Shown here: positions 3,512-43,089 of the stretch, one piece after another | Numbering within the stretch: position 1 is the first letter of the stretch | How the letters are laid out: each line of letters begins with the position of its first letter | From: Candidatus Zixiibacteriota bacterium | GTDB taxonomy: Bacteria > Zixibacteria > MSB-5A5 > GN15 > FEB-12 | DNA: 64,000 nt | Direction of reading: 5' to 3' | Assembly: GCA_034439475.1 (NCBI GenBank) | Contig: JAWXAN010000042.1 | Location: 64,765 to 128,764 of the forward strand | Notes under the pieces: model-generated | What the model was told of the DNA's origin: nothing | Databases searched by the model: none | What the model saw: only the letters and a program-made list of their open reading frames with translations | Made by a program: the position numbers and the translations under genes

Positions 3512-6451
3512 ATGAGACATACCTCACAGAACCTCCATCTCGATAACCGCCTGCTTGCGGTTGAAGAGCTTTATCGTCAGCGAAAGGCGCCGGAAGCGCG
3601 TATTGAGCTCGAACGGCTTAGCGACTCTGATTTTGCTCAATCCGAGCATGAATTGGGTCTCTTTCTCTCGCTCAAAGCTGATTCATATTGCTTCGAAGGA
3701 GAATACCGCAAATCACTCGAAGCCGGTATCAGGGGGGCCAAGCTTCTGGCCGATTCCCCGCTTACACGCCGCTACGGACGGGCTCTCCTCATTCTTGCCA
3801 AGGCATATTTTGGGCTTGGCGATCTTAAGAACTCGGAGATTCGTGCGAGAGACGCGTTAGCCTCGTTTAGACGAGACGGCGATATTGAAGGACAAATAGA
3901 TTCGCTGAACGCACAGGCCCGTGCTGTGTTTACCCGATGCGACTATTCTGCGGCCAGCCTCCTGCTTGATGATGCCGCTCTGCTTTGTACTGACAATCCG
4001 CGCCAACTCGCACAGTTAACCGGTAACTCAGGTCGTATAAAGATTCTATCCGGAAACTGGAGCGCCGCAGAGAAAGACCTTACTGCCGCACTCGAGTATG
4101 GCGTCGCCCACAACGAGGAGACCTCACAGGCGGTCAACCTGCTCTCGCTTGGTTACCTTAATTTGCGCCGCAGAGAATTTACCTCGGCCGACAGGTATTG
4201 GAAGCGCGCTCAGGTAATAATTGATCGTCTCAATCTGAAACGCGAAAAAATAATTCTGCTTGAGTATCAGGGCGAAATGGCTATCGAGAAAAAAGATATG
4301 TTCAAGGCCAAATCGATCCTGAGCGAGGCCTATCATCAGGGTAGATTGCTTGCACCTGAGTCGGCATTGGTCTCCCAATCGGCCCGGAGATTGGCCGAAG
4401 TCGAGTTGTCGCTCGATAACCTTGACGAAGCCATGAAATATGCCCAAAAGGCGCTTGAACTTGCCCAGCAAATGGGTGAAAAAATCGAAGCGGGTCTGGC
4501 CAAAAAAGTTATCGCACAGGTTTTTGCATCGCGTTCCTCATACGACGAAGCGATGGATTATATCACACGGGCTGTCGAAACTGTCCGCGAGGCGGGCGAT
4601 CCGTTTGATCTGGCCCGCACCCTGCTTTATTACGCCGAAATCTCGGGACAATCCGGCTCTGATGAACATGAAAAAATCCGAAGTGCATATGATGAAGCTA
4701 CGCGTATCTTCAAAAAGCTCAAACTTGATTTCTGGCTGGCCGAGGCCGATTTCCGTTCCGGACTCTTTGCCTGTTCACGCGGCGATCTGTCGCGCGGATT
4801 CAAGAAGATAAGTCGTGCTGAGAAATTATTTACCACCCTCTCTGATACTGGCAAAGTGCGAGCCGTTAATCAATTTCTTACCACAATGGCCGATCAGGCT
4901 GTGGCGCTGTCAATTTCACAAGAAAACAGTTTCAAGATTTTTGGCAATCTTGTTACGCAAGGGGATACGAAGGACCTCAAAAGCGGCAAAATGGACGATG
5001 TCCTCAATCTTCTGCTCCGCAGAGCCGGAGCTGACCGTGGGATAGTCTATTCACCTGACTTTACCGAGAGCCCGGTGGTCGCCTCGTTCCCGATAACGCC
5101 GCAGCAGATTAAGAAATTTGATGATACCTTCCGACAGCTTCTTGGACAGGAAGTCTCGCTTGTAAAGCCGACTCTCCTGCTTGACTGCCGTCGCGATCCC
5201 TATATAAATAATCTCTTCCCTGAAGTCCCATATCCGGTCGCAAGCGTAATTGTTGTCCCGTTCAAAATGAGCGACAACTCAAACAGTTTCCTCTATTTGG
5301 ATAAGCTGTCGCCAGACAACACTATCAATCCGTTTGGACAGGACGAACTCAATTTTGCAGTCGGTTTTTCTGACATCATTGCCTTCAAGGCGGCGGAATT
5401 GCATAAGATTAAGCTCATCGAGGATAATAGACGTCTCAAAGCCCAGCTTCGTCAGGAAGCGGCCTTTGCCAATATTATTACACAGAGCAGCCAGATGCTT
5501 GATTTGCTCAATCAGGTCAGGCAGATAGTTGATTCCCCGATTTCAATCGTGATTGAAGGCGAGACCGGATGTGGCAAAGACCTTTTGGCCCGAGCCATAC
5601 ACTATAACTCCAATCGGCGAGACAAGCGCTTCATTTCAATCAACTGCGCCGCTTTGCCGGAAACACTTCTGGAATCAGAGCTTTTTGGATATCGACGCGG
5701 CTCATTTACGGGCGCTGATCGTGACAAACCCGGTCTTTTCGAAGAAGCTCATGGCGGCACATTCTTCCTCGATGAAATAGCCGATATGCCGCTCTCGATT
5801 CAGGCAAAAATACTTCGGGCATTGGAATCCAAAGAGATCGTCCGACTTGGGGAGAGCACACCGAGAAAAGTCGATGTCCGAATTCTTTCGGCCACAAACA
5901 AGGATTTGAAAGAAGAAATGGCGGCCGGGCGCTTCCGTCAGGATCTGTTCTATAGACTTTCTGCCTTCAGCTTCCGTCTCCCATCCCTACGCGAGCGGAA
6001 AGAGGATATTCCTCTACTTGTGAACCATATGCTTCTTGAAAGCGGCAAGACCTGTACCGTAGAAGTTACGCGGCATTTGATGGCCTATGACTGGCCAGGA
6101 AATGTTCGCGAGTTGGAAAATGAAATGAAAAAACTGGTTCTTCTTGCTGGAGACGACGAAAAAATCAGGGTCGAGATCCTTTCCGCTCGAATCAGTCAGT
6201 CTACGAACAACTATGCCTCTCCCTCTGTCCTCAGTGGGAACGCTGCCGACGTCGTTGAATTCTCGCAGGATTATTCTTTGTACGATTTTCTCTCGAACCA
6301 TGAGAAACGGTTTATTATCAAGGCCCTCATGGAAAGTCGAGGGATAAAGAAACATGCTGCCAACCGGCTTAATATTCCCGAATCAACGTTGCGACTCAAG
6401 ATTAAAGAGTACAATCTCAATTTGAAGGCTCTTGACCTGCCCATTGCGTAG
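3512..6451 (+). CDS. Sigma-54-dependent transcriptional activator (bEBP) with a long TPR-like N-terminus, a GAF-like middle region, an AAA+ core and a Fis-type HTH
   Basis: Walker A GETGCGKDLLARAIH; sigma-54 contact loop ESELFGYRRGSFTGA (GAFTGA variant); Walker B GGTFFLDEIADM; RQDLFYRL; C-terminal HTH AANRLNIPESTLRLKIKEYNL. The first ~470 aa are helical repeats of TPR character. Confidence 0.85.
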   Translation: MRHTSQNLHLDNRLLAVEELYRQRKAPEARIELERLSDSDFAQSEHELGLFLSLKADSYCFEGEYRKSLEAGIRGAKLLADSPLTRRYGRALLILAKAYFGLGDLKNSEIRARDALASFRRDGDIEGQIDSLNAQARAVFTRCDYSAASLLLDDAALLCTDNPRQLAQLTGNSGRIKILSGNWSAAEKDLTAALEYGVAHNEETSQAVNLLSLGYLNLRRREFTSADRYWKRAQVIIDRLNLKREKIILLEYQGEMAIEKKDMFKAKSILSEAYHQGRLLAPESALVSQSARRLAEVELSLDNLDEAMKYAQKALELAQQMGEKIEAGLAKKVIAQVFASRSSYDEAMDYITRAVETVREAGDPFDLARTLLYYAEISGQSGSDEHEKIRSAYDEATRIFKKLKLDFWLAEADFRSGLFACSRGDLSRGFKKISRAEKLFTTLSDTGKVRAVNQFLTTMADQAVALSISQENSFKIFGNLVTQGDTKDLKSGKMDDVLNLLLRRAGADRGIVYSPDFTESPVVASFPITPQQIKKFDDTFRQLLGQEVSLVKPTLLLDCRRDPYINNLFPEVPYPVASVIVVPFKMSDNSNSFLYLDKLSPDNTINPFGQDELNFAVGFSDIIAFKAAELHKIKLIEDNRRLKAQLRQEAAFANIITQSSQMLDLLNQVRQIVDSPISIVIEGETGCGKDLLARAIHYNSNRRDKRFISINCAALPETLLESELFGYRRGSFTGADRDKPGLFEEAHGGTFFLDEIADMPLSIQAKILRALESKEIVRLGESTPRKVDVRILSATNKDLKEEMAAGRFRQDLFYRLSAFSFRLPSLRERKEDIPLLVNHMLLESGKTCTVEVTRHLMAYDWPGNVRELENEMKKLVLLAGDDEKIRVEILSARISQSTNNYASPSVLSGNAADVVEFSQDYSLYDFLSNHEKRFIIKALMESRGIKKHAANRLNIPESTLRLKIKEYNLNLKALDLPIA

Positions 6452-6506
6452 GCTCTTTGTCTAAATTCCTGTTGTCTTCGCGCATTTTCTTCAGTTCTTT
6501 TAGTAG

Positions 6507-7367
6507 ATGAAGCGCGAGGGACTCTGTTTTCTTCACTTTGCCTCCGATCCATTTTTCAATATGGCCTTCGATGAATGGCTTCTATTTCAGGCCGTCCAGA
6601 GTCCGCATACTATCTATGCCCGACTGTACACATGGCAAAAGCCAGCTATAACCTTTGGCTGTAATCAAAACGCCGATACGGCGTTTCTGGGCGAGGAGGT
6701 AGGGGATACTCCTGTCATCCGGAGAATAACAGGAGGCAGGGCCCTGCTGCATGACCCGTCCGAGCTCACGTATTCGATATCCGCAAATGCATCAGAGGGG
6801 GCTGGTTTCAGTGGAAATATCGGTCAGACATCGCAGAAAATCGCCACAATAATTCGCTGTTTTCTAAGCCATTACCGTGTCCAATCAGAGTATTCCGCTG
6901 AGTCTGCGGAAAACGAACAGGAGAGAAAACGGGATTTTTTTCATAAAGCGGCATGTTTTTCATCTGTTTCGCGAAACGAGCTGACCACCTCCATGGGGAA
7001 AATCGTCGGCTCGGCGCAACGCCGGATCGGGGCAGCATTCCTGCAACATGGAGCCATAAAATGGCGAGGGGTGGCTGTTCATCCAGCTTTGCATCTCAGA
7101 CCAGCATCCGGAAAGTACGTTGAGACAAGTAATGGTGAAAGCCTGAAGACTGTGGGGGAAAAAGAGTTTGGAGAGGCATCGCAAGTCTTCCTGCAGACGC
7201 TTCAGGAAGAAACCGGAGTGGAGTTTGCCGGCGGAGAGATAACAGAGAGCATGGCAGCAGTGATAAAAGACAGGTCGCTGGAAATCTCTTCTGAGCCCCT
7301 AAAAAAAAGAGATTGCATTAAACAAACAGCCGTGGTCGGAAGTCTTTCTGATACCCGGAACGGATAA
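6507..7367 (+). CDS. Lipoate-protein ligase / octanoyltransferase family protein (BPL_LplA_LipB catalytic domain only)
   Basis: NMAFDEWLL, RRITGGRALLHDPSELTYS and GKIVGSAQRRIGAAFLQHGAI resemble LplA/LipM/LipL catalytic-domain motifs. The start is uncertain (an alternative ATG gives MAFDEW). Confidence 0.65.
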   Translation: MKREGLCFLHFASDPFFNMAFDEWLLFQAVQSPHTIYARLYTWQKPAITFGCNQNADTAFLGEEVGDTPVIRRITGGRALLHDPSELTYSISANASEGAGFSGNIGQTSQKIATIIRCFLSHYRVQSEYSAESAENEQERKRDFFHKAACFSSVSRNELTTSMGKIVGSAQRRIGAAFLQHGAIKWRGVAVHPALHLRPASGKYVETSNGESLKTVGEKEFGEASQVFLQTLQEETGVEFAGGEITESMAAVIKDRSLEISSEPLKKRDCIKQTAVVGSLSDTRNG

Positions 7368-7635
7368 GGGAAAAAAGGTCTTGACTTTGGTCGGTTCGAG
7401 CGCGTACCTTTGCCTGTCTTGCGACTGACAAGAATCGCTCGACGGCTGAATGATAACGCATGATGCGAATCGCGTGTAAAGGGTTGGTTTAGGGCAAAGT
7501 GTTCCTCATATCTTTGTCGCTTAGAAGTATTTTATCAATCGTCCAAAGTACCGCGCGGCTCCAGGCGTCAAGATCATTCGATATAAATGTGAATGATATT
7601 TGGTGTAGGTGATATTTCTCGAGGAGGAAGAATAA

Positions 7636-10600
7636 ATGGTTTGTAGAGCTAATGGACTTCTTAGATTTCATCTGGTGTTCGCCGTGCTGGTTGTTTTGGG
7701 CGCCAGTTCCGCATTTTCTGCGTCGACCGGCCAGATAAAAGGAACCATTCTTGACAAGGAGACTGGCGAAGCGGTTATCGGCGCTTCGGTGGTTGTTGTC
7801 GGTACTAAACAGGGTGCGGTAACTAATGTAGATGGAAAATACACTATTCTCCGTGTGGACCCTGGAACGTACACGCTGAAAATTTCTTCTCTTGATTACA
7901 ATACTGTTGAAGTGACCAAAGTCGACGTCAAGGTCGATCTGACCACAGAAATCTCCGAAAAGATGACTAAACAGGTTGCCACCATTGACAAGCAGATTAC
8001 CGTTGTTGGTAAACGCGATATTATCGACAAGTATGAAACTTCCGGTTCGGCATCAATTACCCAGGAATCAATCAGCAAGCGTCCGGTAGCGACCGTTGAC
8101 AATATTCTCAAGCAGGTTGCCGGTGTTCAGCAGGGCCGTGGCGGAGAAATCTTCATTCGCGGCGGTCGCGGGGGTGAAGTGGGCTATATTGTTGATGGCG
8201 TGCCGATAGGAGATCCGCTCGGCGGTAGTTCAGCCGGAGCCAATTTGTCTCTTGTGGCCGGATCGATCCAGGAACTGCAAATTATTAAAGATGGCTTTGA
8301 TCCTGAATATGGAAATGCGCTTTCGGGTATTGTGAACATTCGTTCGCAAGTCGGCTCCAAGGACAACACGAATGCCAATATTTATTATACGACCGATGAC
8401 CTTGGTAACGGAAGACTCAACAAGTACTCCCAAAACGAAGATTTCCTCCGTTTAACGCTTTCGGGTCCCGACCCGATCCTGACCAATCGAATTCTCCCCG
8501 CCCTTGGGATAAATTTCCTCAGGGAAAAGGAATTCACTTATTTCCTTTATGGCGAAGTTGAAAAGCACGATGGCGACTTCCAATATCAGAATTATGATTC
8601 ACCGGCAACGCGTAAGAATTTTGGGAATTTCAATTTATTCGGTTTGGATATCCCCGAACGACTATACAATCGATATCATTTTCAAGCGAACACGAGATTC
8701 CGTCCGCAACAAAATCTTAAATTCGTGTTCTCGTACAAGTTGTGGGACACTCGCACAACCAGTTTCGATTGGAGTTATCGCTTCAGCGCGAATACCGCCC
8801 CTGTTAATACACAAAAACGACAGAGCCTTTCTCTGGAAGTTGCCCATGAGATTCAGAAGAACTTCACCTATGAAGCAATAGTGTCGTACACAAATCTTCA
8901 GAACACTTCGAGACCGGGCGATCCCAATAACCCCGGCAAGGGTCTGGACCCAGATCAGATGGCGCTTCAATCCGATTGGGAGACCTTCTCAGATCTTAAC
9001 CGCAATGGTGTCTATGATGTCCCTGAACCGATAATAAATCTCTTCCCTGACTCAGCCATCTATGGATCAGATTTTACCGGGCCGGCCTATACCATAGGCG
9101 AATACCTTAGCCTACAGAATCTGCAGGGCGGCGGTAGCTCATTTGCAAATTTCCGTTTTAACAATAATGGCATCTCCGACAGCCTTGAGGGCGAGCCATA
9201 CATTGACGTTAATGGAAACGGGGTATGGGATCGCGGAGATGACCTGCAGGATCGCAATGGGAATGGCATTTTTGATAGAGATCGCCGAGCGCTGGTTGGA
9301 ACTCCATTGCAGGAGCCGTATATCGATGGCGATTCAGTGCTGGGTGAGCCGTTTATCGACCTCGACGGCAACGGTGTGTACAACGCCGGAACAGACAACT
9401 TCGTGAGAAGCAACGATCCGACCATTAACCATGATCTCAATCATGACGGAAGATATAACGGCCCGACTTCGATTTGGTCTCCGAATATTCCGTATTACGA
9501 TAGAAATGGTAATGGTCTCTACGACGCACCAAATTTTCAGTACAACGTCGGAGAGCCGTTTACTGATGACAACGGAAACGGCCGGTTTGATCTTGGCGGC
9601 AGTTCGACGTTTCTTGATCCCTTGACGTATAGGCCAGAAGTTATTTGGTCGAGAAACCGCACACAGACCTATCGTGGTGAAGTAAAAATATTCCGACAGC
9701 TTGGCGCCCATGAACTAAAAGGCGGCTTCTCGTTGCAAAGAGATGTTTTTTCCTATGAGCGTATCGACAGGCCGTACCAACCTTACAGCGGCAGGCTTGA
9801 TGGCGGCGCTTACGGCGAACGGGGAGCTTTCCGCGACTTCTTTGGCTACGATCCGTTGCAAGGAACGTTTTATTTTCGAGATAAGATCGAATATGGTTCA
9901 ATGATTGCCAATCTTGGTCTCCGTCTGGATTATTTTCTACAGGACACCAGGGATTTAGCTGTAACCCTTCGTCGTGATGACCGAGGCGGACTCATTTTAG
10001 GTGACCGTCAAAAAATCTCGCCTCGAATTGGATTTTCATATCCTATCTCGGACAAGGCAAAAGTATATTTCAATTATGGTCATTTCTTCCAATTAGCGAC
10101 ATTTGACCGATTCTTTGCGAGAAATACCTCGTCGGTGGATCAGAATGCAGTGCTTGGAAATCCAAACTTAGACTATCAAAAGACCATTCAATATTCTTTT
10201 GGAGTTAAATATGCCGTGAATGAGAGCTATTCGCTTGACGTTCAGGGATATTTTAAGGATGAGTTCGATAAGATTAATCAGTTCACCGATGAAAGCGGCC
10301 CGGTTAAACGCCAAATTTATGCAAATTCTGACTATGGCCGCAGTCGCGGACTTGAGTTGACTTTGGAGAAACGATCGGGTGGATACGTTACCGGACAAGT
10401 AAGCTATACCTATGCTTTTGCGTTCGGAAAAGCTTCGCAGACCAATCCGAACTATCAAGCGAACTACCTGCTAACGGCACCTTTGGACGAGAATCCGCTG
10501 GATAATGATATCCGGCACTCGCTCAAATCCATTGTTCAGGTTTTTATTCCAAACACGGTCAAACCCCGGCTGTTCGGTCTGCCCATTCCCAGCGGATGGT

Positions 10601-10965
10601 CATTGGCGCTCGAGTCAATTGTCGAAAGCGGCGCGCCATTTACTCCGACCGTTGATTACCCGAATTTGGAGCCATTAGGTTTGGAGTCCCCGCCTATCAA
10701 TTCGTTGAGAATACCGACGACTGTTAACTTTGATATGCGCTTCTCGAAAGATTTCAAATTGGCCGGCATTGATTACAGCTTTATTCTCGAAATGGCCAAT
10801 ATTCTCAATAGCCGTAATATTGTGGATATCTATGAGAAGACTGGCCGTGCGGATACTGACCAAAACATAGGCGGGTTGGTTCTTGGCGGAACAGATTTTA
10901 ACAATGATCCAGCGAGATATGAGCGCCCCCGTCAGGTACAGGTCGGTCTTCAGATCAGCCTATAA
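7636..10965 (+). CDS. TonB-dependent-receptor-like outer-membrane barrel (carboxypeptidase-regulatory-like domain, plug, beta-barrel) with an inserted Ca-binding loop array
   Basis: GGAGGA RBS. Signal peptide LVFAVLVVLGASSAFSA. CarbopepD_reg-like GTILDKETGEAVIGASVVVVGTKQGAVTNVDGKYTI. Plug-like DNILKQVAGVQQGRGGEIFIRGGRGGEVGYIVDGVPIGDP...ELQIIKDGFDPEYGNALSGIVNI. Long C-terminal beta-strand-rich region. Confidence 0.8.
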   Translation: MVCRANGLLRFHLVFAVLVVLGASSAFSASTGQIKGTILDKETGEAVIGASVVVVGTKQGAVTNVDGKYTILRVDPGTYTLKISSLDYNTVEVTKVDVKVDLTTEISEKMTKQVATIDKQITVVGKRDIIDKYETSGSASITQESISKRPVATVDNILKQVAGVQQGRGGEIFIRGGRGGEVGYIVDGVPIGDPLGGSSAGANLSLVAGSIQELQIIKDGFDPEYGNALSGIVNIRSQVGSKDNTNANIYYTTDDLGNGRLNKYSQNEDFLRLTLSGPDPILTNRILPALGINFLREKEFTYFLYGEVEKHDGDFQYQNYDSPATRKNFGNFNLFGLDIPERLYNRYHFQANTRFRPQQNLKFVFSYKLWDTRTTSFDWSYRFSANTAPVNTQKRQSLSLEVAHEIQKNFTYEAIVSYTNLQNTSRPGDPNNPGKGLDPDQMALQSDWETFSDLNRNGVYDVPEPIINLFPDSAIYGSDFTGPAYTIGEYLSLQNLQGGGSSFANFRFNNNGISDSLEGEPYIDVNGNGVWDRGDDLQDRNGNGIFDRDRRALVGTPLQEPYIDGDSVLGEPFIDLDGNGVYNAGTDNFVRSNDPTINHDLNHDGRYNGPTSIWSPNIPYYDRNGNGLYDAPNFQYNVGEPFTDDNGNGRFDLGGSSTFLDPLTYRPEVIWSRNRTQTYRGEVKIFRQLGAHELKGGFSLQRDVFSYERIDRPYQPYSGRLDGGAYGERGAFRDFFGYDPLQGTFYFRDKIEYGSMIANLGLRLDYFLQDTRDLAVTLRRDDRGGLILGDRQKISPRIGFSYPISDKAKVYFNYGHFFQLATFDRFFARNTSSVDQNAVLGNPNLDYQKTIQYSFGVKYAVNESYSLDVQGYFKDEFDKINQFTDESGPVKRQIYANSDYGRSRGLELTLEKRSGGYVTGQVSYTYAFAFGKASQTNPNYQANYLLTAPLDENPLDNDIRHSLKSIVQVFIPNTVKPRLFGLPIPSGWSLALESIVESGAPFTPTVDYPNLEPLGLESPPINSLRIPTTVNFDMRFSKDFKLAGIDYSFILEMANILNSRNIVDIYEKTGRADTDQNIGGLVLGGTDFNNDPARYERPRQVQVGLQISL
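8992..9600 (+). other. Coding segment for an array of EF-hand / thrombospondin-type-3-like Ca-binding loops inside the receptor
   Basis: Reiterated D/N-x-D/N-G-N-G-x-aromatic-D loops: DLNRNGVYD, DVNGNGVWDRGDD, DRNGNGIFDRD, DLDGNGVYNAGTD, DLNHDGRYN, DRNGNGLYD, DDNGNGRFD. Confidence 0.6.
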
Positions 10966-10974
10966 CACACGAAA

Positions 10975-12012
10975 TTGATAATGGATAAGTTTGGTATGAC
11001 AATAGATGAGGTTACAATGAGACACCCGGTTTTTGATATGGTACGGCGCCGAATGCCCACACTCGATTGCTCCGTTGCTTCTCTTGCGCTGTGCGGGTTG
11101 CTGATGACCTTCGTGGTTTCATTCTCTCCCGCAACTGCTTATGGGCAGGCGAAAGTTGGCACAACGGGCGCGCAGTTTCTTGAACTCGGTGTTTCAGCCA
11201 GAGCGATGGGAATGGGCGAAGCCTTTGCAGCGACTGTCGATGATATTTCGGCGGTCTACTATAATCCGGCGGCGCTTTCTTACCTGCTCGGCAAAGAAGC
11301 CATGGCTACATATATCTCCATGCCGGCAGATATCGGATACGGCTTTGCGGCTATTGGTCTTCCGCTGGAGTCTATTGGAGGCGTGCTGGGAATTGGCACG
11401 TACGCTCTCTCCTCGGGGAGCATGTTGGAGTCTACGTATGGCAGACCCAAGGGAACCGGTCGTGAATTCTCCTACAATGATTTTGCGTTATCACTCGGCT
11501 ACGGCCGATATTTGACTGACCGTTTTTCGGTGGGGCTTACAGTGCGTTATATAGGTGAGTTCACGCATGATTTTGCGGCTTCCGGATGGTCGGCCGATGT
11601 TGGGACGCTTTATAACACCGGTTATCGCGGCTTCAAGATCGCTATGGTTATTACCAATTTCGGCCCCGATCTCAAATTCATCAGCGAGGACTATCCTTTG
11701 CCCATCAATTTCAAATTTGGCGGCTCGATTAATATGCTTGAAATGTCTGATCATGTTGCCACATTTGCAGCCGAAGGCTCTCATCCTTCGGACAATCTGG
11801 AAAAGTATAACGCCGGTGTGGAGTATACCTATAAAGATATGTTTGTACTTCGCGGCGGCAGTAGATTTAACTATGATGTTGATGGATTTACCGCCGGCGG
11901 AGGCGTCCGTCTTCCGTTTGGTCAAGAGAGCGAAATACGGATTGACTATGCCTTTCAGGATTTTGACATCCTGACCGAGGTTCATCGCTTTTCAATGTCT
12001 TTCGGATTTTAA
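10975..12012 (+). CDS. PorV/PorQ-family (FadL-like) outer-membrane beta-barrel protein
   Basis: Signal peptide ending ATAYGQ. N-terminal motif GAQFLELGVSARAMGMGEAFAATVDDISAVYYNPAAL resembles the PorV/PorQ signature. The remainder is alternating beta-strand sequence ending in F. It starts 9 nt after the receptor gene; the start codon is uncertain (in-frame ATGs at 11017, 11038 and 11053). Confidence 0.65.
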   Translation: MIMDKFGMTIDEVTMRHPVFDMVRRRMPTLDCSVASLALCGLLMTFVVSFSPATAYGQAKVGTTGAQFLELGVSARAMGMGEAFAATVDDISAVYYNPAALSYLLGKEAMATYISMPADIGYGFAAIGLPLESIGGVLGIGTYALSSGSMLESTYGRPKGTGREFSYNDFALSLGYGRYLTDRFSVGLTVRYIGEFTHDFAASGWSADVGTLYNTGYRGFKIAMVITNFGPDLKFISEDYPLPINFKFGGSINMLEMSDHVATFAAEGSHPSDNLEKYNAGVEYTYKDMFVLRGGSRFNYDVDGFTAGGGVRLPFGQESEIRIDYAFQDFDILTEVHRFSMSFGF

Positions 12013-12035
12013 GCTGAGGAAGGGTACTTTTTTTA

Positions 12036-14309
12036 ATGAATAATATATTTCGTTTACGACTCTCTCTTGGTCTGTCATTCTTTTGTCTTATTTCTTTGAT
12101 TGCCAGCGGATGTTCCAAGCGTCTTGAAGGTGATAAAATCGACAACGAACAACCGATTGTATGGTTTGTGAATGTTCCGGCAGAGAATACCACATTCTCG
12201 ACCAATCCGATAATCCACTGGGTGGGCCAGGACCGCGATGGTCAGATCCAGTATTACCGTTATGCGGTCATCCGTGAGGATTCAATCGCCAACCGTCTCA
12301 ATCTTCCATTGCCGCTCAGTTTACTGCAGGTTGACAATTTCAGTCGTGATGTCCTGCCTGCTTACATCGATACCATCTGGAAGTACCTCGATGTCAACCC
12401 CCAAGCCGGAGATCCGAAGACAAGCAACATTATTCCGATGTCTGCCGAACTTACCAATCCGGTGACGACCAAGGTTCCGCAATTTGTTTTCATCCAGGCC
12501 TTTGATGACGAACTCATGGGCTCACAAATTGCCTTCCGTAGATTTTTGAGGATAGACAATCCCCCAAATACCTTCGTGACAAACTTCAACCGAGCGGATC
12601 CAGCGACATTTATCGACTCGAAGTTTCCGTTTGGAATTACTGGTGTCAAGATGAGCTGGCGCGGCACGGATGTATTGGATTATCCCGCCGATCCGCCTCC
12701 GTTTGAATTTGAATGGCGTCTCTACGGCCCGTATAACTATAGCGACTCGCTCGCGGATACATCAAGGGACAGAGCCTTTGACAGGATAATGAAAAAGTAT
12801 GTGCAAAAAGTCTTTGTCACCACAGACGCGAAAGTTTATCGTTTTCGGCAGACCCCGCCCGCGTATTTTGATATCTGCGACACGTTTCCCGACTCGATTT
12901 CCTGCCAGAGGATATTCATTGATGCCATTACCGGAAACACTGCCTTTGGAATTATCGATACCCTTTTACTTGTTGATGACACCGGCTTTATAAACGCAGG
13001 CTACAACAAGATTGCTGCGAGTTCTTTCGACGGTATAGATCCATGGGTGTCTGACACTCGCGATTCAATCTACAATGTCTTTGAGTCGGACCCGTCGGAT
13101 GTGACTCGAGATGCCCGATTCATTTTTTGGGTGAGATGCCGTGATGACGCGCTTGTGCCAGATCTCACTCCGGCATTTGTTCATTTTACCGCCGTTGAGG
13201 CCAAGTACGAGCGCGATATTGGTATTGTCGATATGCAGAAAGCGTCAACAGACAACGGGATAATTAATCACAATTCGATTGATTCTCTAAAGTTTGTCCG
13301 AAACTACTGGTCATCGACTATACGCCAATGGAATCTTGACTCAAATCCCGGTGCATCAGCTGTAGAATTTGACAGCTTGAAGGACTATATACGCCCGAAC
13401 ACTGCCCAAGGTTTTACCATCACCTTAAAACAGCTTCTGTCATATAAAGTATTGATTCTTTACAGTGACGACTCGAAGTCGTCTCAGCTGACCGCCAACA
13501 TTGTCAAGAATTTTCTTCCGCAAGCGTTGCAGGCAGGTGTCAATGTTTGGATAATGGGACGTTCATTGCTCGAAGGCTCAAGTTCGGGACCTGTCGGTCT
13601 CCCTCCAAAGTCTCTCGTTCCAATTATCTGCGACCTAAAGTTTCCGAATTATTCGTTCTATTTCGGGGCGATTTCGATGGTCTTCACGGGTTGGGATTAT
13701 TGGGCAAGAAATACGCCTATTGGCACTGCTAATGTCAGAATTGAAGATTTTGTTGGTGCGTATAGTTTAAATCCTAACAAGTGGCCTGACTTAAAGGTGG
13801 ACACGCTTAAACTCGAGAATAGATACAAATGGTCGAAGGCACCCGGTAGTTTTCCTCTCTTCCGCCGTCCGAACGGGCCGGATTCAGGCAAGATGATTGT
13901 CGGCGCGTTGCCGGAGGTCGGTTGGACAGTTCGAGATTTCCGGACTGAAATATCACACCTTTACAAGTCAAAATATGGAGCGTCACATATTCTTCCCTAT
14001 CCCGAATACGTTTTCGACGGTACACCGGTGGCATTCCGACTGGATCGCGGATTCTTCCGAACGGCCCACTGGAACTTTACCCCGTATTCCCTTGAGACCG
14101 ATTCCTCTCAGAAAGTTGTAGGGGAGATGCTCACTTGGCTCTACGCGCCGAAAGCTCAGGCCAGCCCTGATGACTTCACCTCGGGTCAATACTCGACCAG
14201 CGCAAAATACCCTGTCTCAGCTGATGAGATGAGACAGCGTTACTGGAAGCTGTATGACGATAAGTCCAAGAACGCAGAGGATGTCACCTACGGAGTGCCA
14301 ATCAAATAA
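12036..14309 (+). CDS. Hypothetical 757-aa lipoprotein, function unknown
   Basis: Lipobox LIASGC after a hydrophobic N-terminus. It lies 23 nt after the PorV-like gene and is followed by a strong terminator. No family recognised by eye. Confidence 0.7.
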   Translation: MNNIFRLRLSLGLSFFCLISLIASGCSKRLEGDKIDNEQPIVWFVNVPAENTTFSTNPIIHWVGQDRDGQIQYYRYAVIREDSIANRLNLPLPLSLLQVDNFSRDVLPAYIDTIWKYLDVNPQAGDPKTSNIIPMSAELTNPVTTKVPQFVFIQAFDDELMGSQIAFRRFLRIDNPPNTFVTNFNRADPATFIDSKFPFGITGVKMSWRGTDVLDYPADPPPFEFEWRLYGPYNYSDSLADTSRDRAFDRIMKKYVQKVFVTTDAKVYRFRQTPPAYFDICDTFPDSISCQRIFIDAITGNTAFGIIDTLLLVDDTGFINAGYNKIAASSFDGIDPWVSDTRDSIYNVFESDPSDVTRDARFIFWVRCRDDALVPDLTPAFVHFTAVEAKYERDIGIVDMQKASTDNGIINHNSIDSLKFVRNYWSSTIRQWNLDSNPGASAVEFDSLKDYIRPNTAQGFTITLKQLLSYKVLILYSDDSKSSQLTANIVKNFLPQALQAGVNVWIMGRSLLEGSSSGPVGLPPKSLVPIICDLKFPNYSFYFGAISMVFTGWDYWARNTPIGTANVRIEDFVGAYSLNPNKWPDLKVDTLKLENRYKWSKAPGSFPLFRRPNGPDSGKMIVGALPEVGWTVRDFRTEISHLYKSKYGASHILPYPEYVFDGTPVAFRLDRGFFRTAHWNFTPYSLETDSSQKVVGEMLTWLYAPKAQASPDDFTSGQYSTSAKYPVSADEMRQRYWKLYDDKSKNAEDVTYGVPIK

Positions 14310-14335
14310 TTGAGACACTTTGAATTGATTTCAAA

Positions 14336-14366
14336 ACGAGACTGATTACTCAGTCTCGTTTTTTTA
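14336..14366 (+). terminator. Intrinsic terminator of the receptor/PorV/lipoprotein operon
   Basis: Perfect 10-bp stem acgagactga / tcagtctcgt with loop ttac, followed by ttttttt. Confidence 0.8.
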
Positions 14367-16556
14367 TTGTCTGAGTTGGGCTTTGATTTCCATTAGGAGC
14401 GAATCATTGGGAAATCGTCTCAAAGATTCGTTGAGAACCGAGTCGGCCATTAGATTTTCTCCTGTTGAGACTAATCCGCTGATCAGATTTACATATGCTG
14501 CCGAAAGCAGTGAATCATACGCTATCGCCTGTCTGCTGTATGATACGGCATCGGAGAATCGTCCCTGACGTCCAGAAATAAAACCAAGCTGAAAATAGAC
14601 TTTGGCCTTCTCGATGGAAAACTGAGACCGAATTTTGAAGAAATCAGGCTCGCTCATACGAAAATCATTTTCAAGCGGCGGCGGTGTGACAGCGAGCGAC
14701 GCGTCGAGTATCTCTCTCGCGAAATCCAAAACCTGCGATGCTGTAAGTATGGCTGCGGCTTCGTTTATCAGTTGAAGATTTGAGTCAGTGTCTTGGATAG
14801 CGTCTTTGGTGATAGACATAAATGAGTCCACCGGCTCTGTGGCGGCGGCAATCCTCAGCCTTATGTTTTGCGCAATAGGATCATACGGTCGCAAGAGCAG
14901 AGCCTGCTCGATTATCCGTTTGGCTTCGGCCGTTTTGCCTCCAATGAGAGAAAGGGAGGCGAGATTTATATAACTCTTTCCGCGCAATGGATTGGTGCGG
15001 CGCTCTCTTTCGTAGTAGAACCGCGCAGAATCGGTATTATTGAGACGGAAATGCACGTTGCCCAAATTGAAATTAGCCTCGGGAATTGTTGAGTCGATCT
15101 GTAGAGTTTGACTGAAATATGTGAGAGCCTGTTGATACTCTCCTCTGTTGTAGTGAAATAGTCCCTTTGTGGTTTGTAGAAGACCGACATGCGAGTGCGC
15201 GGAGATCTTTATGGGAAGCCAGGAGGTCGCCAAAGCCAGGATAAAGGCGGCGGCGTATTTCCAATGTGATCCGAATAGGCGGAATCGGCTTTGAAACATC
15301 GCTTGGATTGCAATGGCCGCAAAAATAAAATAAAAAGGGAGGAGAGGAAGCCGAAATCGGCTGGTAATAAAGAAAAGAGACCCGAGGGCTATGAATAAAC
15401 CCCACCACAGCACAAGTAACCGAGCTTGCCTGCGGTCCTTATAGGTAATGACTATTCCCAGCACAGCGAAAGGGAAGATAAGCCCGAATCGAAGCGGGTT
15501 TGAAGTCAGAAGAAAAATGCCGGCAAGTTTCGGTTCGCCCACTCGGTTGTTTGCGATCTCCCGGTTACTAAAATTGAGGAGAAGTTTTTTTGCCGTGAGT
15601 TTAAAAAAAGAAAACGGATTTTCAAAAATCCACTGGAATGCGCGATCTGTCCAGTAGTCGGATACTTTGCCGGGGGATAATTTTTCGCCCAATGTTTTCT
15701 CGGCAAAGAATGCGATATCAGCATATTGCCAGTTGAAGCCAAGCGGCTCGGGGAGGAAGGCGGATACTCCGTCGGCAGTTTCATTGTTTCCAATAAAAAA
15801 GTTAATCCCCCCTTGCGAGGCGATAAGCACAGATTCATCGCCTACAAGACGATTTCGGAGTGTCACCGGACCAATAACAAGCAATGCGGCGAGCGCCAAC
15901 ACGGCAAGATTCATGAGAGTCTCGCGCCGAGTGCCACTAAGGCGGATAACGAGAGTTGCCAGGAGCGGAAGAAAAAGAAGCGCTGTCGGTCTGGTCAGTG
16001 CGGAAAGAGAAAAGAGCGCGGACACCAAAAACAATAATTTCTGTGACGGCTTTTCTCTCCAGTTGAGAATCTGAAAAAAGGCAATTTGCAATAGAAGCAC
16101 GAAAAGGGGATCCGCGAGCAATTCGGATTCGAAGTAGAGCATTGCCGGATAGAAGGCATGGATCATAGCCGCAATGAGACCCACAGTGCGCGAGGAAAGC
16201 TTCTCGCCCAAGCGAAATGTCATGTAAACTGACGCAAGGCCGATAGCCAGGCCAAGGAAGCGGGCAGCCCATAACGATGGCTCAATCAGCGCATAGAAAA
16301 AGGCCAGAACAAATGTATAGAAAGGCGCTCGGAAATATGTCGTTTCGCCAAAAATATTCCCTCTCGCAATCGTCTGAGCCCAGTTGTGGTAGTAGTAGTT
16401 ATCAATAGTCAGTTGATCCCAATCAGGAAGGCCCTGATAGAGGTAGAGATAGAGCAGGCGAACACAAGCCGCGAGACCTAATACGAGAAATAGAGGGTAG
16501 GTTTGTTTGCTCGGATGGAATTTCGAAAAGGTCATCGGCCAAATATAGCATGACAC
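14364..16556 (-). CDS. Polytopic GT39/ArnT-PMT-like glycosyltransferase fused to C-terminal TPR repeats
   Basis: About 430 aa of multiple TM helices with the layout typical of GT-C dolichyl/undecaprenyl-phosphate-sugar transferases, then ~300 aa of TPR-like repeats (YNRGEYQQALTYFSQTLQIDS..., GRFSDAVSYSRQAIAYDS...). Confidence 0.65.
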   Translation of the reverse strand: MSCYIWPMTFSKFHPSKQTYPLFLVLGLAACVRLLYLYLYQGLPDWDQLTIDNYYYHNWAQTIARGNIFGETTYFRAPFYTFVLAFFYALIEPSLWAARFLGLAIGLASVYMTFRLGEKLSSRTVGLIAAMIHAFYPAMLYFESELLADPLFVLLLQIAFFQILNWREKPSQKLLFLVSALFSLSALTRPTALLFLPLLATLVIRLSGTRRETLMNLAVLALAALLVIGPVTLRNRLVGDESVLIASQGGINFFIGNNETADGVSAFLPEPLGFNWQYADIAFFAEKTLGEKLSPGKVSDYWTDRAFQWIFENPFSFFKLTAKKLLLNFSNREIANNRVGEPKLAGIFLLTSNPLRFGLIFPFAVLGIVITYKDRRQARLLVLWWGLFIALGSLFFITSRFRLPLLPFYFIFAAIAIQAMFQSRFRLFGSHWKYAAAFILALATSWLPIKISAHSHVGLLQTTKGLFHYNRGEYQQALTYFSQTLQIDSTIPEANFNLGNVHFRLNNTDSARFYYERERRTNPLRGKSYINLASLSLIGGKTAEAKRIIEQALLLRPYDPIAQNIRLRIAAATEPVDSFMSITKDAIQDTDSNLQLINEAAAILTASQVLDFAREILDASLAVTPPPLENDFRMSEPDFFKIRSQFSIEKAKVYFQLGFISGRQGRFSDAVSYSRQAIAYDSLLSAAYVNLISGLVSTGENLMADSVLNESLRRFPNDSLLMEIKAQLRQ

Positions 16557-16758
16557 AATTAATTACAGGCAAAAAAGTGTTTTATTTATCTGCATTTGGG
16601 TGCATGGTAATACTGCATCCTGATAACTGGCAATTGTCAACTACAGTTTACGGACGACTTGACTACGTGCTGCTTTAAGCTCATGGCTTTGATGGGGATA
16701 GAATATTTACTAAAAAGTGTTATGACCTGAGTTGCAGAGTTATGTAGCCATTAAGTCA

Positions 16759-16774
16759 CGGCATATCCTTTGCT
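16759..16774 (+). promoter_or_regulatory. Candidate sigma-54 (-24/-12) promoter upstream of the S8 protease gene
   Basis: cGGCATATCCTTTGCT. GG (16760-61) and GC (16772-73) have the canonical spacing (GGCA-N6-TTGC, against consensus TGGCACG-N4-TTGCW). It lies 20-38 nt upstream of the possible start codons, and an AAGGAG RBS follows at 16801. Confidence 0.4.
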
Positions 16775-16792
16775 CTTTGACTCCTTGTTGAA

Positions 16793-19714
16793 ATGAATGG
16801 AAGGAGTCAGGTGCGATTTCATAAAGTCCGACAGAGTTTACTGACTCTCAATGTTCTTTTGTTAATGTTTTTTCCCTCATTTTCTTTCGCCAATGATCGC
16901 ATTCACGAAAGCTTATCCTCGTTAGCTGGCAATCTCCAAGCCGCTGACAGTTTAGTTGATGTTCTAATTTTCCTGGATACCAAAGAAACTGAGGCTGCCG
17001 TTTCCAAATCGCTCCAGCGTCCAAACATAAGCCGACATACAAGAATACAATCCGTCATTACAAGTCTCACTTCGGTAACTCCGACAGATCGTAGAGAAGT
17101 GGAAGATTTCTTAAACAGCATCTCCAGTTCGCCAGTTCAGTTATACTGGATAGCGCCTTGTTACACAGCAACTATTCCGGCAAGTTCGCTTGGAAAACTC
17201 TCGACCATGAGCGCCGTGACATTGATAATACCAAATCTTGGTATCGACTTTATCCCGGTGGTGGAAAGCTCTCCCGCTCCACAGTCTGTTTCGACAATAG
17301 CCTCCGAGCTCAATGCTATGGGCGTTCCTCAACTTTGGCAGCGGGGCCTGACTGGCAAAGGTCGGTTAGTCTGTTCATTCGATACCGGAGTCGAAGGTGC
17401 CCATCCGGCATTATCATCAAAATGGCGTGGAAGACATAGTACTCTCTCCTCCTCCTGGTTTTCCAGTGTCTCACCAGACAGCCTGCCATCAGACAAAGTC
17501 GGCCATGGAACGCACACGATGGGAATAATGGTGGGTTCGGCATCAGCCGATTCTTTTGGAGTTGCCCCCGGCGCCGAGTGGATTTCCGCCGCGGTAATTG
17601 ATCAGGGACGCCCGCTCGGTACGACTGTAAGCGATATTATTGCCGCATTTCAGTGGTCTCTCAATCCGGATGGAAATATCTCCACAACGAATGATGTCCC
17701 CGATGTCATTCTCAACAGTTGGGGTATCCCGACCGGCCTCTTTGGTCCCTGCGACCAAACGTTTTGGTCTGTTATTGATAATGTTGAAGCGGCGGGAATT
17801 GTAACAATTTTCGCGGCCGGAAACGAAGGACCAAATCAAAAAACTATCAGAAATCCAGCGGACAGAGGAAGCAGTCCAACCAACTCATTCTCGGTCGGCG
17901 CGATTGATCTCGGCAATGTCGTCGCAAACTTTTCAAGCCGCGGTCCATCGGCCTGCGATCCGACACATATCAAGCCCGAGTTGGTTGCTCCGGGTGTGGT
18001 TGTCCGTTCTTCGACCAAGGGCGGCGGGTTTGCTTTTATGAGCGGAACATCGATGGCCGCTCCGTATATTGCTGGTCTGGTGGCGCTGTGCCGCCAGTAC
18101 AATCCCGACGCAACAGTTGACGAAATAAAACAAGCGTTAATAAATGCCGCAAATGACCTCGGGCCTGTAGGTGAAGACAATGCCTACGGATATGGGTTGG
18201 TCGACGCGTCCCGCCTGCCTGACTTTCTTTCAGCGCCGAGTCGAGCGGAATTTTCGGTGGCAGGACAAATTGTCAACGGAGATGGCGTCGCCTCGCCGGG
18301 CGAACTGATCGGACTTACCCTGTATCTTACGCAAAACTTCTCTTTGAATGCCTCAGTTCAAGGTCGTTTGAAGCCCCGCACGGCGGGTAATGTCGCCGTT
18401 ATCAATCAGCAGTCAGGATTCATTTTCGGCGAAGGCGGGGTAACGGCAATGAATGCTATACCATTTACACTGATGATCAACGAATCGGTGCCGAATGGGG
18501 CTTCAGAAAGTTTGGTACTTTATGTCGAGACGACCGATGGATCTGTCATTGATAGTGTCGAGTTGATATTAACCGTTGGATTTATTCCTCCCGGTCCAAA
18601 TGTGTCACACGCTGGGACTGCTGTCAGATTTTCAGTCTCAGGATTTGGGCAGTACGGCCTGGCATACGGCTCGATTTACAATCTCAATGGCGAAGGTTTT
18701 TGTTTCGGGAATTCTGAGAATCTACTCTATGAATCCGGTTTGATAGTGGGCAGGAGCGCACTTCAGCTATCATCGGCAATTCGCAATAGTCAGGGTTCAT
18801 TTACTCCTTCCGATTTTGCGCCCATCGGCGAATTCAGTCAGAGCCAAACAGTCGGAGAACTTCGCTACACTGTTGGTTTCGATGACCGACGCTCGTCAAT
18901 TCCCCTTCCGATAACCATCTCGCAGGAGACAATTAGTTATTCCAGCTTTGAGGATAATAGCATCGTCATAATGAACTACACATTGACGAATAAGACGTTG
19001 GAACGTCTGACTAACCTCCGCTTCGGTTTTTTAAACGATTTTGATTTGCCCGGCGCAAATAAGGCATACCTTGACGAGGTCGAAGGCTTTATTTATCAGC
19101 ATGGTGAGGGTGGCGCATTTATTGGTTTGGTTGCGCTAAAAAATGTCAATTCGTTCACCAGCATTTCCAATGTGACTGGCAAAACAGGCTTCACAAAGAC
19201 CCAGCAGTTCAGCCTTATTTCCACGAATGTCAACAATGTCGACAGTTCGCTCTCGGGCGATCTGCTTTTCATCGCGGCCTCAAATTCCATAACCCTTGAA
19301 CCTCGGGGAAATACTGAAGTTGCTTTTGCGCTCATTGCCGGTGACAATCTCGGACAACTCTATGAGAATATGGCTCGGGCAAGGGCGAAGTATGATATTG
19401 CGACAGGAATCGAAGACGACCCGGATGTTTTGCCGCAAAGCTTCAGCCTCGAGCAGAACTATCCCAATCCGTTTAATCCATCGACGACAATATCGTTTGG
19501 ACTTTCTGAGAGAAGTCATGTTTCCATCAGGGTCTTCAACATTCAAGGTCAGACGGTCAAGACCTTGACTTCAGGAGAACTTGGCCCGGGTAGCCATTCA
19601 GTCCTCTGGGATGCCACAAATGATCGGAATGAACCGGTATCCACGGGAATCTATTTTTATCGACTGGACACTAATTTTGGGGTCGAGACCCGTAAAATGG
19701 TTCTTTTAAGATGA
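16793..19714 (+). CDS. Subtilisin-like S8 serine protease with T9SS C-terminal sorting domain
   Basis: Catalytic triad contexts FDTGV (D), HGTHTMG (H) and GTSMAAPYIAG (S). N-terminal signal peptide. C-terminus LEQNYPNPFNPSTTISFGL...TGIYFYRL...RKMVLLR. An alternative start is GTG 16811, preceded by AAGGAG. Confidence 0.9.
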   Translation: MNGRSQVRFHKVRQSLLTLNVLLLMFFPSFSFANDRIHESLSSLAGNLQAADSLVDVLIFLDTKETEAAVSKSLQRPNISRHTRIQSVITSLTSVTPTDRREVEDFLNSISSSPVQLYWIAPCYTATIPASSLGKLSTMSAVTLIIPNLGIDFIPVVESSPAPQSVSTIASELNAMGVPQLWQRGLTGKGRLVCSFDTGVEGAHPALSSKWRGRHSTLSSSWFSSVSPDSLPSDKVGHGTHTMGIMVGSASADSFGVAPGAEWISAAVIDQGRPLGTTVSDIIAAFQWSLNPDGNISTTNDVPDVILNSWGIPTGLFGPCDQTFWSVIDNVEAAGIVTIFAAGNEGPNQKTIRNPADRGSSPTNSFSVGAIDLGNVVANFSSRGPSACDPTHIKPELVAPGVVVRSSTKGGGFAFMSGTSMAAPYIAGLVALCRQYNPDATVDEIKQALINAANDLGPVGEDNAYGYGLVDASRLPDFLSAPSRAEFSVAGQIVNGDGVASPGELIGLTLYLTQNFSLNASVQGRLKPRTAGNVAVINQQSGFIFGEGGVTAMNAIPFTLMINESVPNGASESLVLYVETTDGSVIDSVELILTVGFIPPGPNVSHAGTAVRFSVSGFGQYGLAYGSIYNLNGEGFCFGNSENLLYESGLIVGRSALQLSSAIRNSQGSFTPSDFAPIGEFSQSQTVGELRYTVGFDDRRSSIPLPITISQETISYSSFEDNSIVIMNYTLTNKTLERLTNLRFGFLNDFDLPGANKAYLDEVEGFIYQHGEGGAFIGLVALKNVNSFTSISNVTGKTGFTKTQQFSLISTNVNNVDSSLSGDLLFIAASNSITLEPRGNTEVAFALIAGDNLGQLYENMARARAKYDIATGIEDDPDVLPQSFSLEQNYPNPFNPSTTISFGLSERSHVSIRVFNIQGQTVKTLTSGELGPGSHSVLWDATNDRNEPVSTGIYFYRLDTNFGVETRKMVLLR

Positions 19715-19804
19715 ACGCTTTTCCGTATATTCATTGACAAGGCTGAAGTGATACTTAACTACACGATGAAAAAAATAATTCATGCGATACAAAGGATAAC
19801 AAGG

Positions 19805-22739: not shown

Positions 22740-22769
22740 TTGACGCCAGCTTTAAAATGCCCTTATATT
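22740..22769 (+). promoter_or_regulatory. Candidate sigma-70 promoter for the E2/lipB/fabL genes
   Basis: TTGACG (22740-45), 18-nt spacer, TATATT (22764-69), about 60 nt upstream of the ATG at 22827. Confidence 0.5.
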
Positions 22770-22826
22770 ACGGCCTATTATGTGTATGAACATGTTTATT
22801 TTGAGCAGATAAGGAATACTGATTTT

Positions 22827-33316: not shown

Positions 33317-33342
33317 CACGTTTGTCTCCTTACGCAAGGTTA

Positions 33343-42890: not shown

Positions 42891-43089
42891 TCTGGTAGAG
42901 GCTGAAAGAGGTAGGCTCCAATCGAGACCCTCATACATTTACTGCATAAGGCTTGTGAAAGCTGATAGTTGAAAAGAATTCAGTGTGAAAAGCTGTCCTT
43001 TGGGGAAGCAATTCCCTTCGGGATTCCGAGAACGCGCCGAGAACAACTGCTGCCGCTCTTGGTTTGAGGAAGTCGATTTAGGAGGAAAG

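Follow-up and report, generated by a model that had tools for sequence, protein, structure and literature searches.

A stretch of 64,000 nucleotides (nt) from contig JAWXAN010000042.1 of a Candidatus Zixiibacteriota bacterium (hereafter the window, meaning this 64-kb stretch at its full length) carries three adjacent genes, here called g1, g2 and g3, that encode one outer-membrane module and are a signature of the phylum Zixibacteria. The module consists of a TonB-dependent-transporter-type protein (g1), a small barrel of the PorV/PorQ family (g2) and a lipoprotein without a family in the libraries (g3), and next to it lie genes for proteases with the C-terminal sorting domain (CTD) of type IX secretion system (T9SS) cargo. 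The evidence comprises domain identities, operon structure, phylum-wide synteny, a conserved sigma-54 site and the modelled fold of g3. As to function, we tentatively favour, at a probability of about 0.4, a reading in which the three proteins would form a complex of the outer membrane that links protein digestion at the surface to the TonB-driven import of peptides and in which g2 would be the docking barrel.

Operon structure and distribution of the three genes

The open reading frames (ORFs) of g1, g2 and g3 are co-directional on the + strand and encode 1109, 345 and 757 amino acids, respectively, the length of g2 being that of the longest ORF, which starts at a TTG. Their linkage and boundaries were exactly those of the original prediction, i.e., a note made on this DNA from its sequence alone. 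A GGAGG ribosome-binding site is located 5' of the ATG of g1. In the g2 orthologues an in-frame 'IDExxM' is followed by a Met, by a signal peptide with A-x-A/G at its end, and then by QAKVGTTGAQFLELG. The simplest reading of 'IDExxM' is a ribosome-binding site translated in frame, and because of this pattern the real start of g2 in the window is probably the ATG at 11026 and not the TTG at 10975. The NCBI call of g2 (338 amino acids) is likewise longer than the version starting at the ATG. Counted from the ATG, the gap between g1 and g2 is about 60 nt; of the two gaps that had been predicted (9 and 23 nt) the 9-nt gap depends on the TTG, and the tight spacing as such was upheld. Across loci the distance from the g1 stop to the mature N-terminus of g2 had a median of 171 nt and was 121-191 nt in 68/70 loci (outliers: 1895 and 3097 nt), and the median distance from the g2 stop to the lipobox Cys of g3 was 108 nt.

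The hairpin of an intrinsic terminator was found downstream of g3, at coordinates (Table 1) that differ by a few bases from the predicted ones (14336-14366). Since it is flanked by the stop of g3 (14309) and by that of a convergent glycosyltransferase gene with tetratricopeptide repeats (TPR), here called PMT_2/TPR (14364), and since its 5' A-run is a T-run on the other strand, this terminator is probably bidirectional and common to both genes.

For the analysis of synteny one genome per species was scanned, which gave 117 genomes with a g3 relative, and 80 species-level loci were compared; each count given below refers to the loci that extend far enough to include the place of the gene in question. 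The g2 gene was directly upstream of g3 in 70/74 loci (55-74% identity to the window protein), and g1 was upstream of g2 in 58/62 loci (42-62% identity), with two of the misses due to fragmented alignments. The identity of g3 to the window protein across these loci was only 27-45%. Further members of the block were a gene for a protein with the LplA/LipB catalytic fold (LplA-like) near the triad (55/58 loci, including the deep clade), a sigma-54 activator gene upstream (39/49), the PMT_2/TPR gene convergent with g3 (55/57), and genes for an S8 peptidase (46/49) and an M6 peptidase (37/42), both with a T9SS-type CTD. The arrangement of the triad is far beyond chance, and practically all related genomes with sequence of sufficient length have it. 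A survey of the triad in related genomes had been suggested together with the original prediction, and it found the triad shared across the whole phylum.

In the deepest clade, where g3 is 25-29% identical, the LplA-like gene, g1, g2, g3, PMT_2/TPR and S8 are kept, and the activator and M6 are missing. More divergent g3 homologues of 629-868 amino acids, retrieved by profile search, are still followed by PMT_2/TPR and S8. Because the gene order persists in the deepest clade and in these divergent g3 lineages, the block is a core feature of the phylum Zixibacteria, and the most persistent partners of g3 are the glycosyltransferase and the subtilase. The true exceptions to synteny are extra copies of g3, present in loci L082, L076 and L067, the last of which is too short to be interpreted. 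In L082 (6912-15058) the extra g3 follows two HtrA-like Trypsin_2/PDZ proteases and precedes a gene for a dockerin-domain protein, and in L076 (8538-12058) the g3 copy closes an exbD-tonB operon, directly after tonB. A g3-like gene whose product has a Big_7 domain was found in L085 (4843-10958) without g1 and g2 and divergent from an adjoining gene for an S8/FlgD_ig peptidase.

The block is also present on contigs of metagenome-assembled genomes (MAGs) labelled 'uncultured Ignavibacteriales', 'Calditrichota' and 'Candidatus Acidoferrum' (L008, L010, L011, L014, L015, L023, L060 and others). Since the block is common to all of them, weak MAG taxonomy is the probable source of such labels.

Domain composition and conservation of the three proteins

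By sequence, g1 has the plug followed by a receptor barrel that defines a TonB-dependent transporter. It carries a signal peptide, and NCBI names it 'TonB-dependent receptor'. The plug matched PF07715 with 47.6 bits (cut-off 23.9) over model positions 2-106 of 107, and the barrel matched TonB_dep_Rec_b-barrel (PF00593) at residues 578-948 with 60.9 bits (cut-off 27), or 67 bits when the C-terminal half was scanned alone. That half scanned alone also matched PF25183 (OMP_b-brl_4) with 48 bits (cut-off 30); we take PF25183 to be a model of Oar-like barrels, the library itself saying only 'outer membrane beta barrel domain'. The N-terminal domain matched by sequence the N-terminal extension domains of two entries in the PDB, 6ytc ('TonB-dependent receptor') and 9hfj ('SusC homolog'). 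The SusC-like layout of regulatory-like domain, plug and barrel given in the original prediction was thus found, and membership of SusC/RagA was not: with the SusC/RagA model TIGR04056 g1 scored 58.2 bits (cut-off 368), aligning with only the N-terminal 183 model positions, and there was no adjoining SusD/RagB partner. Genes for exbBD-tonB were not found in the window.

The 62 orthologues of g1 are 1105-1138 amino acids long and their alignment is almost free of gaps. The strand with the consensus ITVxG before the plug is kept at 80-95% over these orthologues, and by its position and its similarity to TonB boxes it is a putative TonB box. The plug is the best-conserved N-terminal part of g1 (identity 0.65-0.79). 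An insert at residues ~430-660 carries six D-x-N-G-N-G-x-[YWF]-D motifs (residues 453, 524, 539, 575, 622 and 644) resembling the calcium loops of EF-hand, FG-GAP or TSP3, and these motifs are kept across the phylum. The insert had no Pfam match and no PDB sequence match, and it is presumed to be an extracellular loop domain, which may bind calcium. In g1 (codons 10957-10965) as in its orthologues the last residues are VNL, INL or ISL and not the aromatic C-terminal residue that is usual for TonB-dependent transporters and many beta-barrel assembly machinery (BAM) substrates.

For g2, the PorV/PorQ-type barrel named in the original prediction was confirmed by a hidden Markov model search, and the protein was judged by its sequence to be a bona fide member of that family. 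It scored 197.2 bits with the PorV/PorQ family model NF033709 (cut-off 90) over model positions 1-326 of 326, and NCBI names it 'PorV/PorQ family protein'. It additionally matched Toluene_X/FadL in Pfam. The scores with the equivalog models were 63 bits for PorV (NF033710, cut-off 250), 100 bits for PorQ (NF033711, cut-off 220) and 53 bits for PorV2 (NF052325, cut-off 325). Because g2 is not a PorV or PorQ equivalog, the label 'cargo shuttle', which the original prediction had attached to it, is unwarranted. The sole PDB sequence relative of g2 was PorV of F. johnsoniae (6h3i_F, E=1e-10), and no BamG chain and no FadL chain were found in the PDB sequence search up to E<=10. The homologue search with g2 gave nothing but Zixibacteria orthologues among the 120 matches listed. 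Conservation is even along the mature protein, with 0.63-0.78 per 25-residue block, the exception being residues 151-175 (0.49). Such evenness is unusual for a small barrel with loops that face the environment; it fits, and does not show, loops that are buried in protein contacts.

The g3 protein is 100% identical to a 'hypothetical protein' from a 'candidate division Zixibacteria' MAG. Neither g3 nor its 42 aligned homologues belong to a Pfam or NCBIfam family, and a sequence search of the PDB with the g3 family profile found nothing. The profile search gave 825 matches at E<=1e-3. The homologues form 118 clusters with 25-43% identity and Pfam domains in none, and those with names are all from Zixibacteria/GN15, save a few that are labelled Acidobacteriota or plain 'bacterium'. 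The lipobox G25-C26 is nearly invariant in the family, and the peptide after the Cys is conserved as C-[TS]-x-x-L-x-G-[ED]-x3-N-x2-P. While g3 evolves approximately twice as fast as g2, it yet keeps the lipobox and this peptide. Conservation is otherwise patchy: the N-terminal peptide, the first beta-sandwich and a few other blocks are kept, and much of the rest drifts. From the alignment we infer a pattern that fits a conserved docking end with a more exposed body.

In the AlphaFold2 (AF2) model of full-length g3 (predicted local distance difference test, pLDDT, 84.6; predicted template modelling score, pTM, 0.81) the N-terminal region is made up of two to three beta-sandwiches resembling immunoglobulin (Ig) or fibronectin type III (FN3) domains, and its Foldseek matches in the PDB were tandem FN3, Ig, S-layer and adhesin domains. 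The C-terminal alpha/beta domain modelled alone had a pLDDT of 79 and a pTM of 0.86. Its top 30 Foldseek hits were all similar to class I glutamine amidotransferases (GATase1-like), among them STM1381, a Planctomyces GATase1-like protein, ThuA-like proteins and trimerisation domains of glycoside hydrolase family GH42; the top hits had probabilities of 0.9-0.99 with weak E-values of 1e-3 to 5e-2, and over the 30 hits the E-values were 1e-3 to 0.2 and the TM-scores, normalised to the target, 0.18-0.54. There is no Cys and no His among the invariant residues of the family. The model thus suggests for this domain at most a fold relationship to class I glutamine amidotransferases, with no catalysis in the amidotransferase sense because invariant Cys and His are lacking; on the same ground g3 was rejected as an enzyme, be it an amidotransferase or a PorU-like protease or sortase. 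It was also rejected as a divergent SusD: there was no match to the SusD models of Pfam in the 42 homologues, and the modelled folds are Ig-like beta-sandwiches and a GATase1-like alpha/beta domain rather than an all-alpha TPR fold. The view in the original prediction that g3 is not SusD-like and has no recognisable family held up accordingly. In the three respects in which that prediction could fail, g2 was found to score as PorV/PorQ, the triad to be syntenic and g3 not to be a SusD.

Conserved neighbours and their regulation

The coordinates of the features discussed are given in Table 1. All three T9SS cargo genes that the original prediction had noted in the window were recovered. With the counts given above for S8 and M6, the link of the triad to T9SS-type cargo is stronger than was known when that prediction was made.

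Table 1. Features of the g1-g3 region and of the remaining window referred to in the text
Feature	Position	Strand	Evidence or remarks
Sigma-54 enhancer-binding activator	3512-6451	+	N-terminal TPR/MalT-like region, AAA+ Sigma54_activat, HTH_8 (Pfam)
Divergent LplA/LipB-catalytic-fold protein, directly 5' of g1	6507-7367	+	PF21948, 76 bits; no signal peptide
g1, TonB-dependent-transporter-type outer-membrane protein	7636-10965	+	1109 amino acids
g1 carboxypeptidase-regulatory-like N-terminal extension (SusC/Oar type)	7732-7977	+	Pfam CarbopepD_reg_2, residues 34-114
g1 TonB-box-like strand ITVVG (consensus ITVxG)	7996-8010	+	Position just 5' of the plug
g1 plug	8029-8328	+	PF07715, residues 132-231
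g1 barrel insert (~230 amino acids), six calcium-loop-like motifs	8923-9615	+	Motifs and conservation
g2, PorV/PorQ-family (FadL-superfamily) small barrel	11026-12012 (longest ORF from TTG 10975)	+	
g3, lipoprotein	12036-14309	+	757 amino acids; no library family
g3 N-terminal region, two to three Ig/FN3-like beta-sandwiches	12153-13205	+	AF2 model, residues ~40-390
g3 C-terminal alpha/beta domain, class-I glutamine-amidotransferase-like (ThuA/STM1381-like)	13212-14165	+	Model and Foldseek
Intrinsic-terminator hairpin	14333-14362	unstranded	13-pair stem, 4-nt loop, then TTTATT
PMT_2 membrane glycosyltransferase (ArnT/PMT-type, polyprenyl-phosphate-sugar-dependent) with C-terminal TPR	14364-16556	-	Pfam
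Sigma-54 promoter-like element CGGCATATCCTTTGCT	16759-16774	+	19 nt 5' of the S8 ATG
S8 subtilase, signal peptide and T9SS type-A CTD	16793-19714	+	Peptidase_S8, FlgD_ig, Por_Secre_tail
M6 (immune-inhibitor-A-like) metallopeptidase, T9SS type-A CTD	19748-22603	+	Pfam
Third CTD-bearing protein, 559 amino acids	51537-53216	+	Sole Pfam matches FlgD_ig and Por_Secre_tail, C-terminal

With Por_Secre_tail (PF18962, cut-off 27) the S8 peptidase scored 28.8 bits and the M6 peptidase 27.4 bits, the FlgD_ig matches being stronger in both, and the C-termini of both proteins show the motif NYPNPFNPSTTI. By these sequence features S8 and M6 qualify as T9SS type-A CTD cargo (Por_Secre_tail plus signal peptide). 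No T9SS core genes were found in the window or in the 20-kb loci, which were the sole sequence covered.

The pattern YGGCAY-N5-TTGCW has a single match in the window, i.e., the element directly upstream of S8. When the 300 nt upstream of the S8 gene were scanned at a score of >=8/12, a sigma-54-like site was the best hit in 51/53 loci (L003-L082), and the twelve top-scoring sites were at distances of 21-113 nt upstream of the S8 start, all but one of them within 21-49 nt. Because this site precedes S8 and none precedes g1, the protease genes, and not g1-g3, are probably the targets of the adjacent activator, with g1-g3 transcribed separately. An Rfam scan of 6400-17000, including the 270-nt leader of g1, gave no riboswitch or other element at E<=1, which argues against a cofactor transporter controlled by a riboswitch.

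The product of the gene directly 5' of g1 is named 'hypothetical' by NCBI. A second, canonical gene with the LplA/LipB fold (24202-24906, +, 143 bits) is located beside the gene for a lipoyl-bearing E2 acyltransferase (22740-24197). In the divergent gene, it is a cytoplasmic LplA-like protein with a ligase fold that travels with an outer-membrane operon. Elsewhere in the window, bamA (five POTRA domains and Omp85), skp/ompH and lpxD are encoded at 31759-35886 (-), with lgt and a PAP2 phosphatase gene nearby at 27128-28925. A protein of 2819 amino acids rich in PKD, Big_9, Big_13, cadherin-like and Y_Y_Y domains (42985-51444, +) is probably a giant surface adhesin, and no C-terminal sorting domain was detected in it at E<=1e-3.

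Possible functions of the module

No paper joining Zixibacteria with the T9SS was found in the literature searched, nor any description of a PorV-like barrel in a TonB-transporter operon. The closest known systems each share a part of the module. RagAB imports peptides made by T9SS-secreted proteases, and SusCD utilisomes belong to the same background. The module resembles SusCD/RagAB in the fold of the N-terminal extension of g1 (9hfj, 6ytc), in the operon with a lipoprotein gene and in the adjacent secreted hydrolases. It differs from them in the low score of g1 with the SusC/RagA model, in a lipoprotein that is not SusD-like and in the PorV/PorQ barrel inserted between the two; moreover, the Zixibacteria locus is a single-copy part of the phylum core, unlike the variable polysaccharide utilisation loci of SusCD. 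In the T9SS, PorU and PorZ keep their CTDs uncleaved and stay bound to PorV and PorQ, and the protection and retention of particular CTDs is ascribed to cognate PorV-like barrels (PMC10202324). The likeness to PorV-PorU, PorQ-PorZ and the PorP/SprF carriers consists in the homology of g2 to PorV and PorQ and in the CTD proteins encoded alongside, whereas the genes that share the transcript of g2 encode a TonB-type transporter and a lipoprotein instead of PorU or PorZ; moreover, g2 misses the equivalog cut-offs and is not known to associate with SprA. BamG is a 14-strand barrel of the FadL superfamily that is docked on BamA and grips BamH, a surface lipoprotein, by its conserved lipidated N-terminus (PMC12578637, PMC12611786). 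As with BamG-BamH, a small FadL-superfamily barrel and a lipoprotein with a conserved lipidated N-terminus are encoded in one operon here; unlike there, the large partner is of the TonB type and not BamA.

In the peptide-uptake model, g1, g2 and g3 would assemble into a single complex in which g2 would be the docking platform that grips the lipidated N-terminal peptide of g3, as BamG holds BamH. In addition, retained CTDs of S8 and M6 may be bound to g2, in the way that PorZ is kept by PorQ and PorU by PorV. The adjacent activator would switch on the S8 and M6 genes via the sigma-54 promoter, and the two peptidases would leave the cell by a CTD-dependent route and digest proteins on its surface. 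The products of this proteolysis would be captured by g3 and the insert of g1, and g1 would import the oligopeptides with TonB energy. The PMT_2/TPR enzyme may glycosylate one or more of these envelope proteins. Overall, the system would be a peptide 'utilisome' built without SusD. We consider this the most economical model because of the precedents of BamG-BamH, of CTD-tethering in the T9SS and of Oar (see below), together with the SusCD/RagAB background. Two exceptional loci also speak for it: the g3 homologue in L085 stays beside an S8/FlgD_ig peptidase despite the absence of g1 and g2, and the g3 copy in L076 ends an exbD-tonB operon.

Several observations weigh against this model. A near-universal, single-copy and highly conserved module looks more like housekeeping envelope machinery; nutrient-uptake loci usually vary between species. 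The sigma-54 site is carried by the peptidase genes and not by g1-g3, and no sigma-54 promoter pattern was found consistently upstream of g1 or of the LplA-like gene. The acidic residues after the Cys of g3 only partly resemble the export signal of Bacteroidota. Linkage to TonB was rejected as a general trait of the g3 family; the context in L076 is lineage-specific, with the nearest relatives in canonical triads. As an equivalog of PorV, PorQ or PorV2, g2 was rejected on its scores, which are beneath all three cut-offs. Finally, there is a report of the PorV/PorQ family in Brachyspira (bioRxiv 10.1101/2025.01.03.631275). This spirochaete is not part of the Fibrobacterota-Chlorobiota-Bacteroidota (FCB) group, to which the same paper ascribes the T9SS; that Brachyspira itself lacks a T9SS is our own deduction and not a statement of that paper.

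The last two points serve equally well the main, if rather unlikely, alternative, in which the module would carry out ordinary TonB-dependent import of another nutrient (a metal complex, cofactor, glycan or lipid) and the proteases would be unlinked neighbours. Here g3 would be a binding lipoprotein of the BtuG/SusE kind, g2 a FadL-type channel or structural partner, and its membership of the PorV family a matter of FadL-superfamily ancestry only. That g1 has every sequence hallmark of an importer, that g2 matches Toluene_X/FadL, that the promoters of g1-g3 and of S8/M6 differ and that one g3 copy lies in an exbD-tonB operon would all be expected. It is less easily reconciled with the S8 linkage, which outlasts both the deepest splits of the phylum and rearranged loci, with the lack of an Rfam element in the scanned region or with a block devoid of genes for the metabolism or the periplasmic binding of a specific nutrient. 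A role in outer-membrane biogenesis, with g2 and g3 as functional analogues of BamG and BamH attached to, or building, the large transporter, is very improbable. The way in which BamG anchors the BamH N-terminus and docks on a larger barrel, the presence of BamG and BamH in most FCB phyla and the bamG2-bamH2 operon (PMC12578637, PMC12611786) would suit such a role, as would the conserved post-Cys peptide of g3 and a degree of conservation typical of housekeeping functions. We disfavour it because no similarity of g2 or g3 to BamG or BamH was detected: g2 matches PorV and no BamG chain, the 50 best structural matches included no BAM subunit for either model of g3, and bamA-skp-lpxD lies 20 kb away in the window, outside the conserved block.

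Export or anchoring is the remaining alternative, and it seems improbable. Either g1 would act like Oar of Myxococcus xanthus, a TonB-dependent transporter that is needed for secretion of PopC, a subtilisin-like protease (PMC6434023), or g1-g2-g3 would be a counterpart of T9SS attachment or translocon-accessory proteins for S8 and M6. A more specific version, in which the three proteins would be a TonB-energised export and anchoring machine for CTD-bearing proteins that partly replaces SprA-PorV or the PorQUZ attachment complex, we consider quite improbable. The architecture of g1 speaks for such readings, since it shares with Oar the CarboxypepD_reg extension, plug and barrel, including the match of its C-terminal half to PF25183, and the conserved neighbour is again a subtilase; the homology of g2 to PorV and a conservation of g1 and g2 that is typical of machinery rather than of nutrient loci point the same way. 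Partners of the PorV or g3 kind are absent from the Oar system. Against such readings, PopC has neither a signal peptide nor a CTD (PMC6434023), whereas S8 and M6 carry both, which points to Sec plus a CTD-dependent route and against passage through g1. In addition, a 22-strand barrel is narrow for a folded cargo of 950 amino acids, and g3 is without the invariant Cys or His that a PorU-like sortase would need. If export were nevertheless the function, Oar-type TonB-dependent secretion would be linked to the T9SS sorting signal.

Transporter-lipoprotein complexes and PorV-like carriers are two hallmark outer-membrane inventions of the FCB group that have been studied separately, and here they are encoded in one operon. 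This operon adds a third partner of an unrecognised family and has T9SS-type proteases next door, across an uncultured phylum. The eight-gene block is a clean phylum marker that could correct MAG labels or detect mis-binned contigs. If the three proteins form one complex, the principle of a small FadL-like barrel as docking platform would extend from BAM and the T9SS to nutrient transporters, and there would be a concrete model of how detrital protein may nourish Zixibacteria, a common group in sediments and aquifers.

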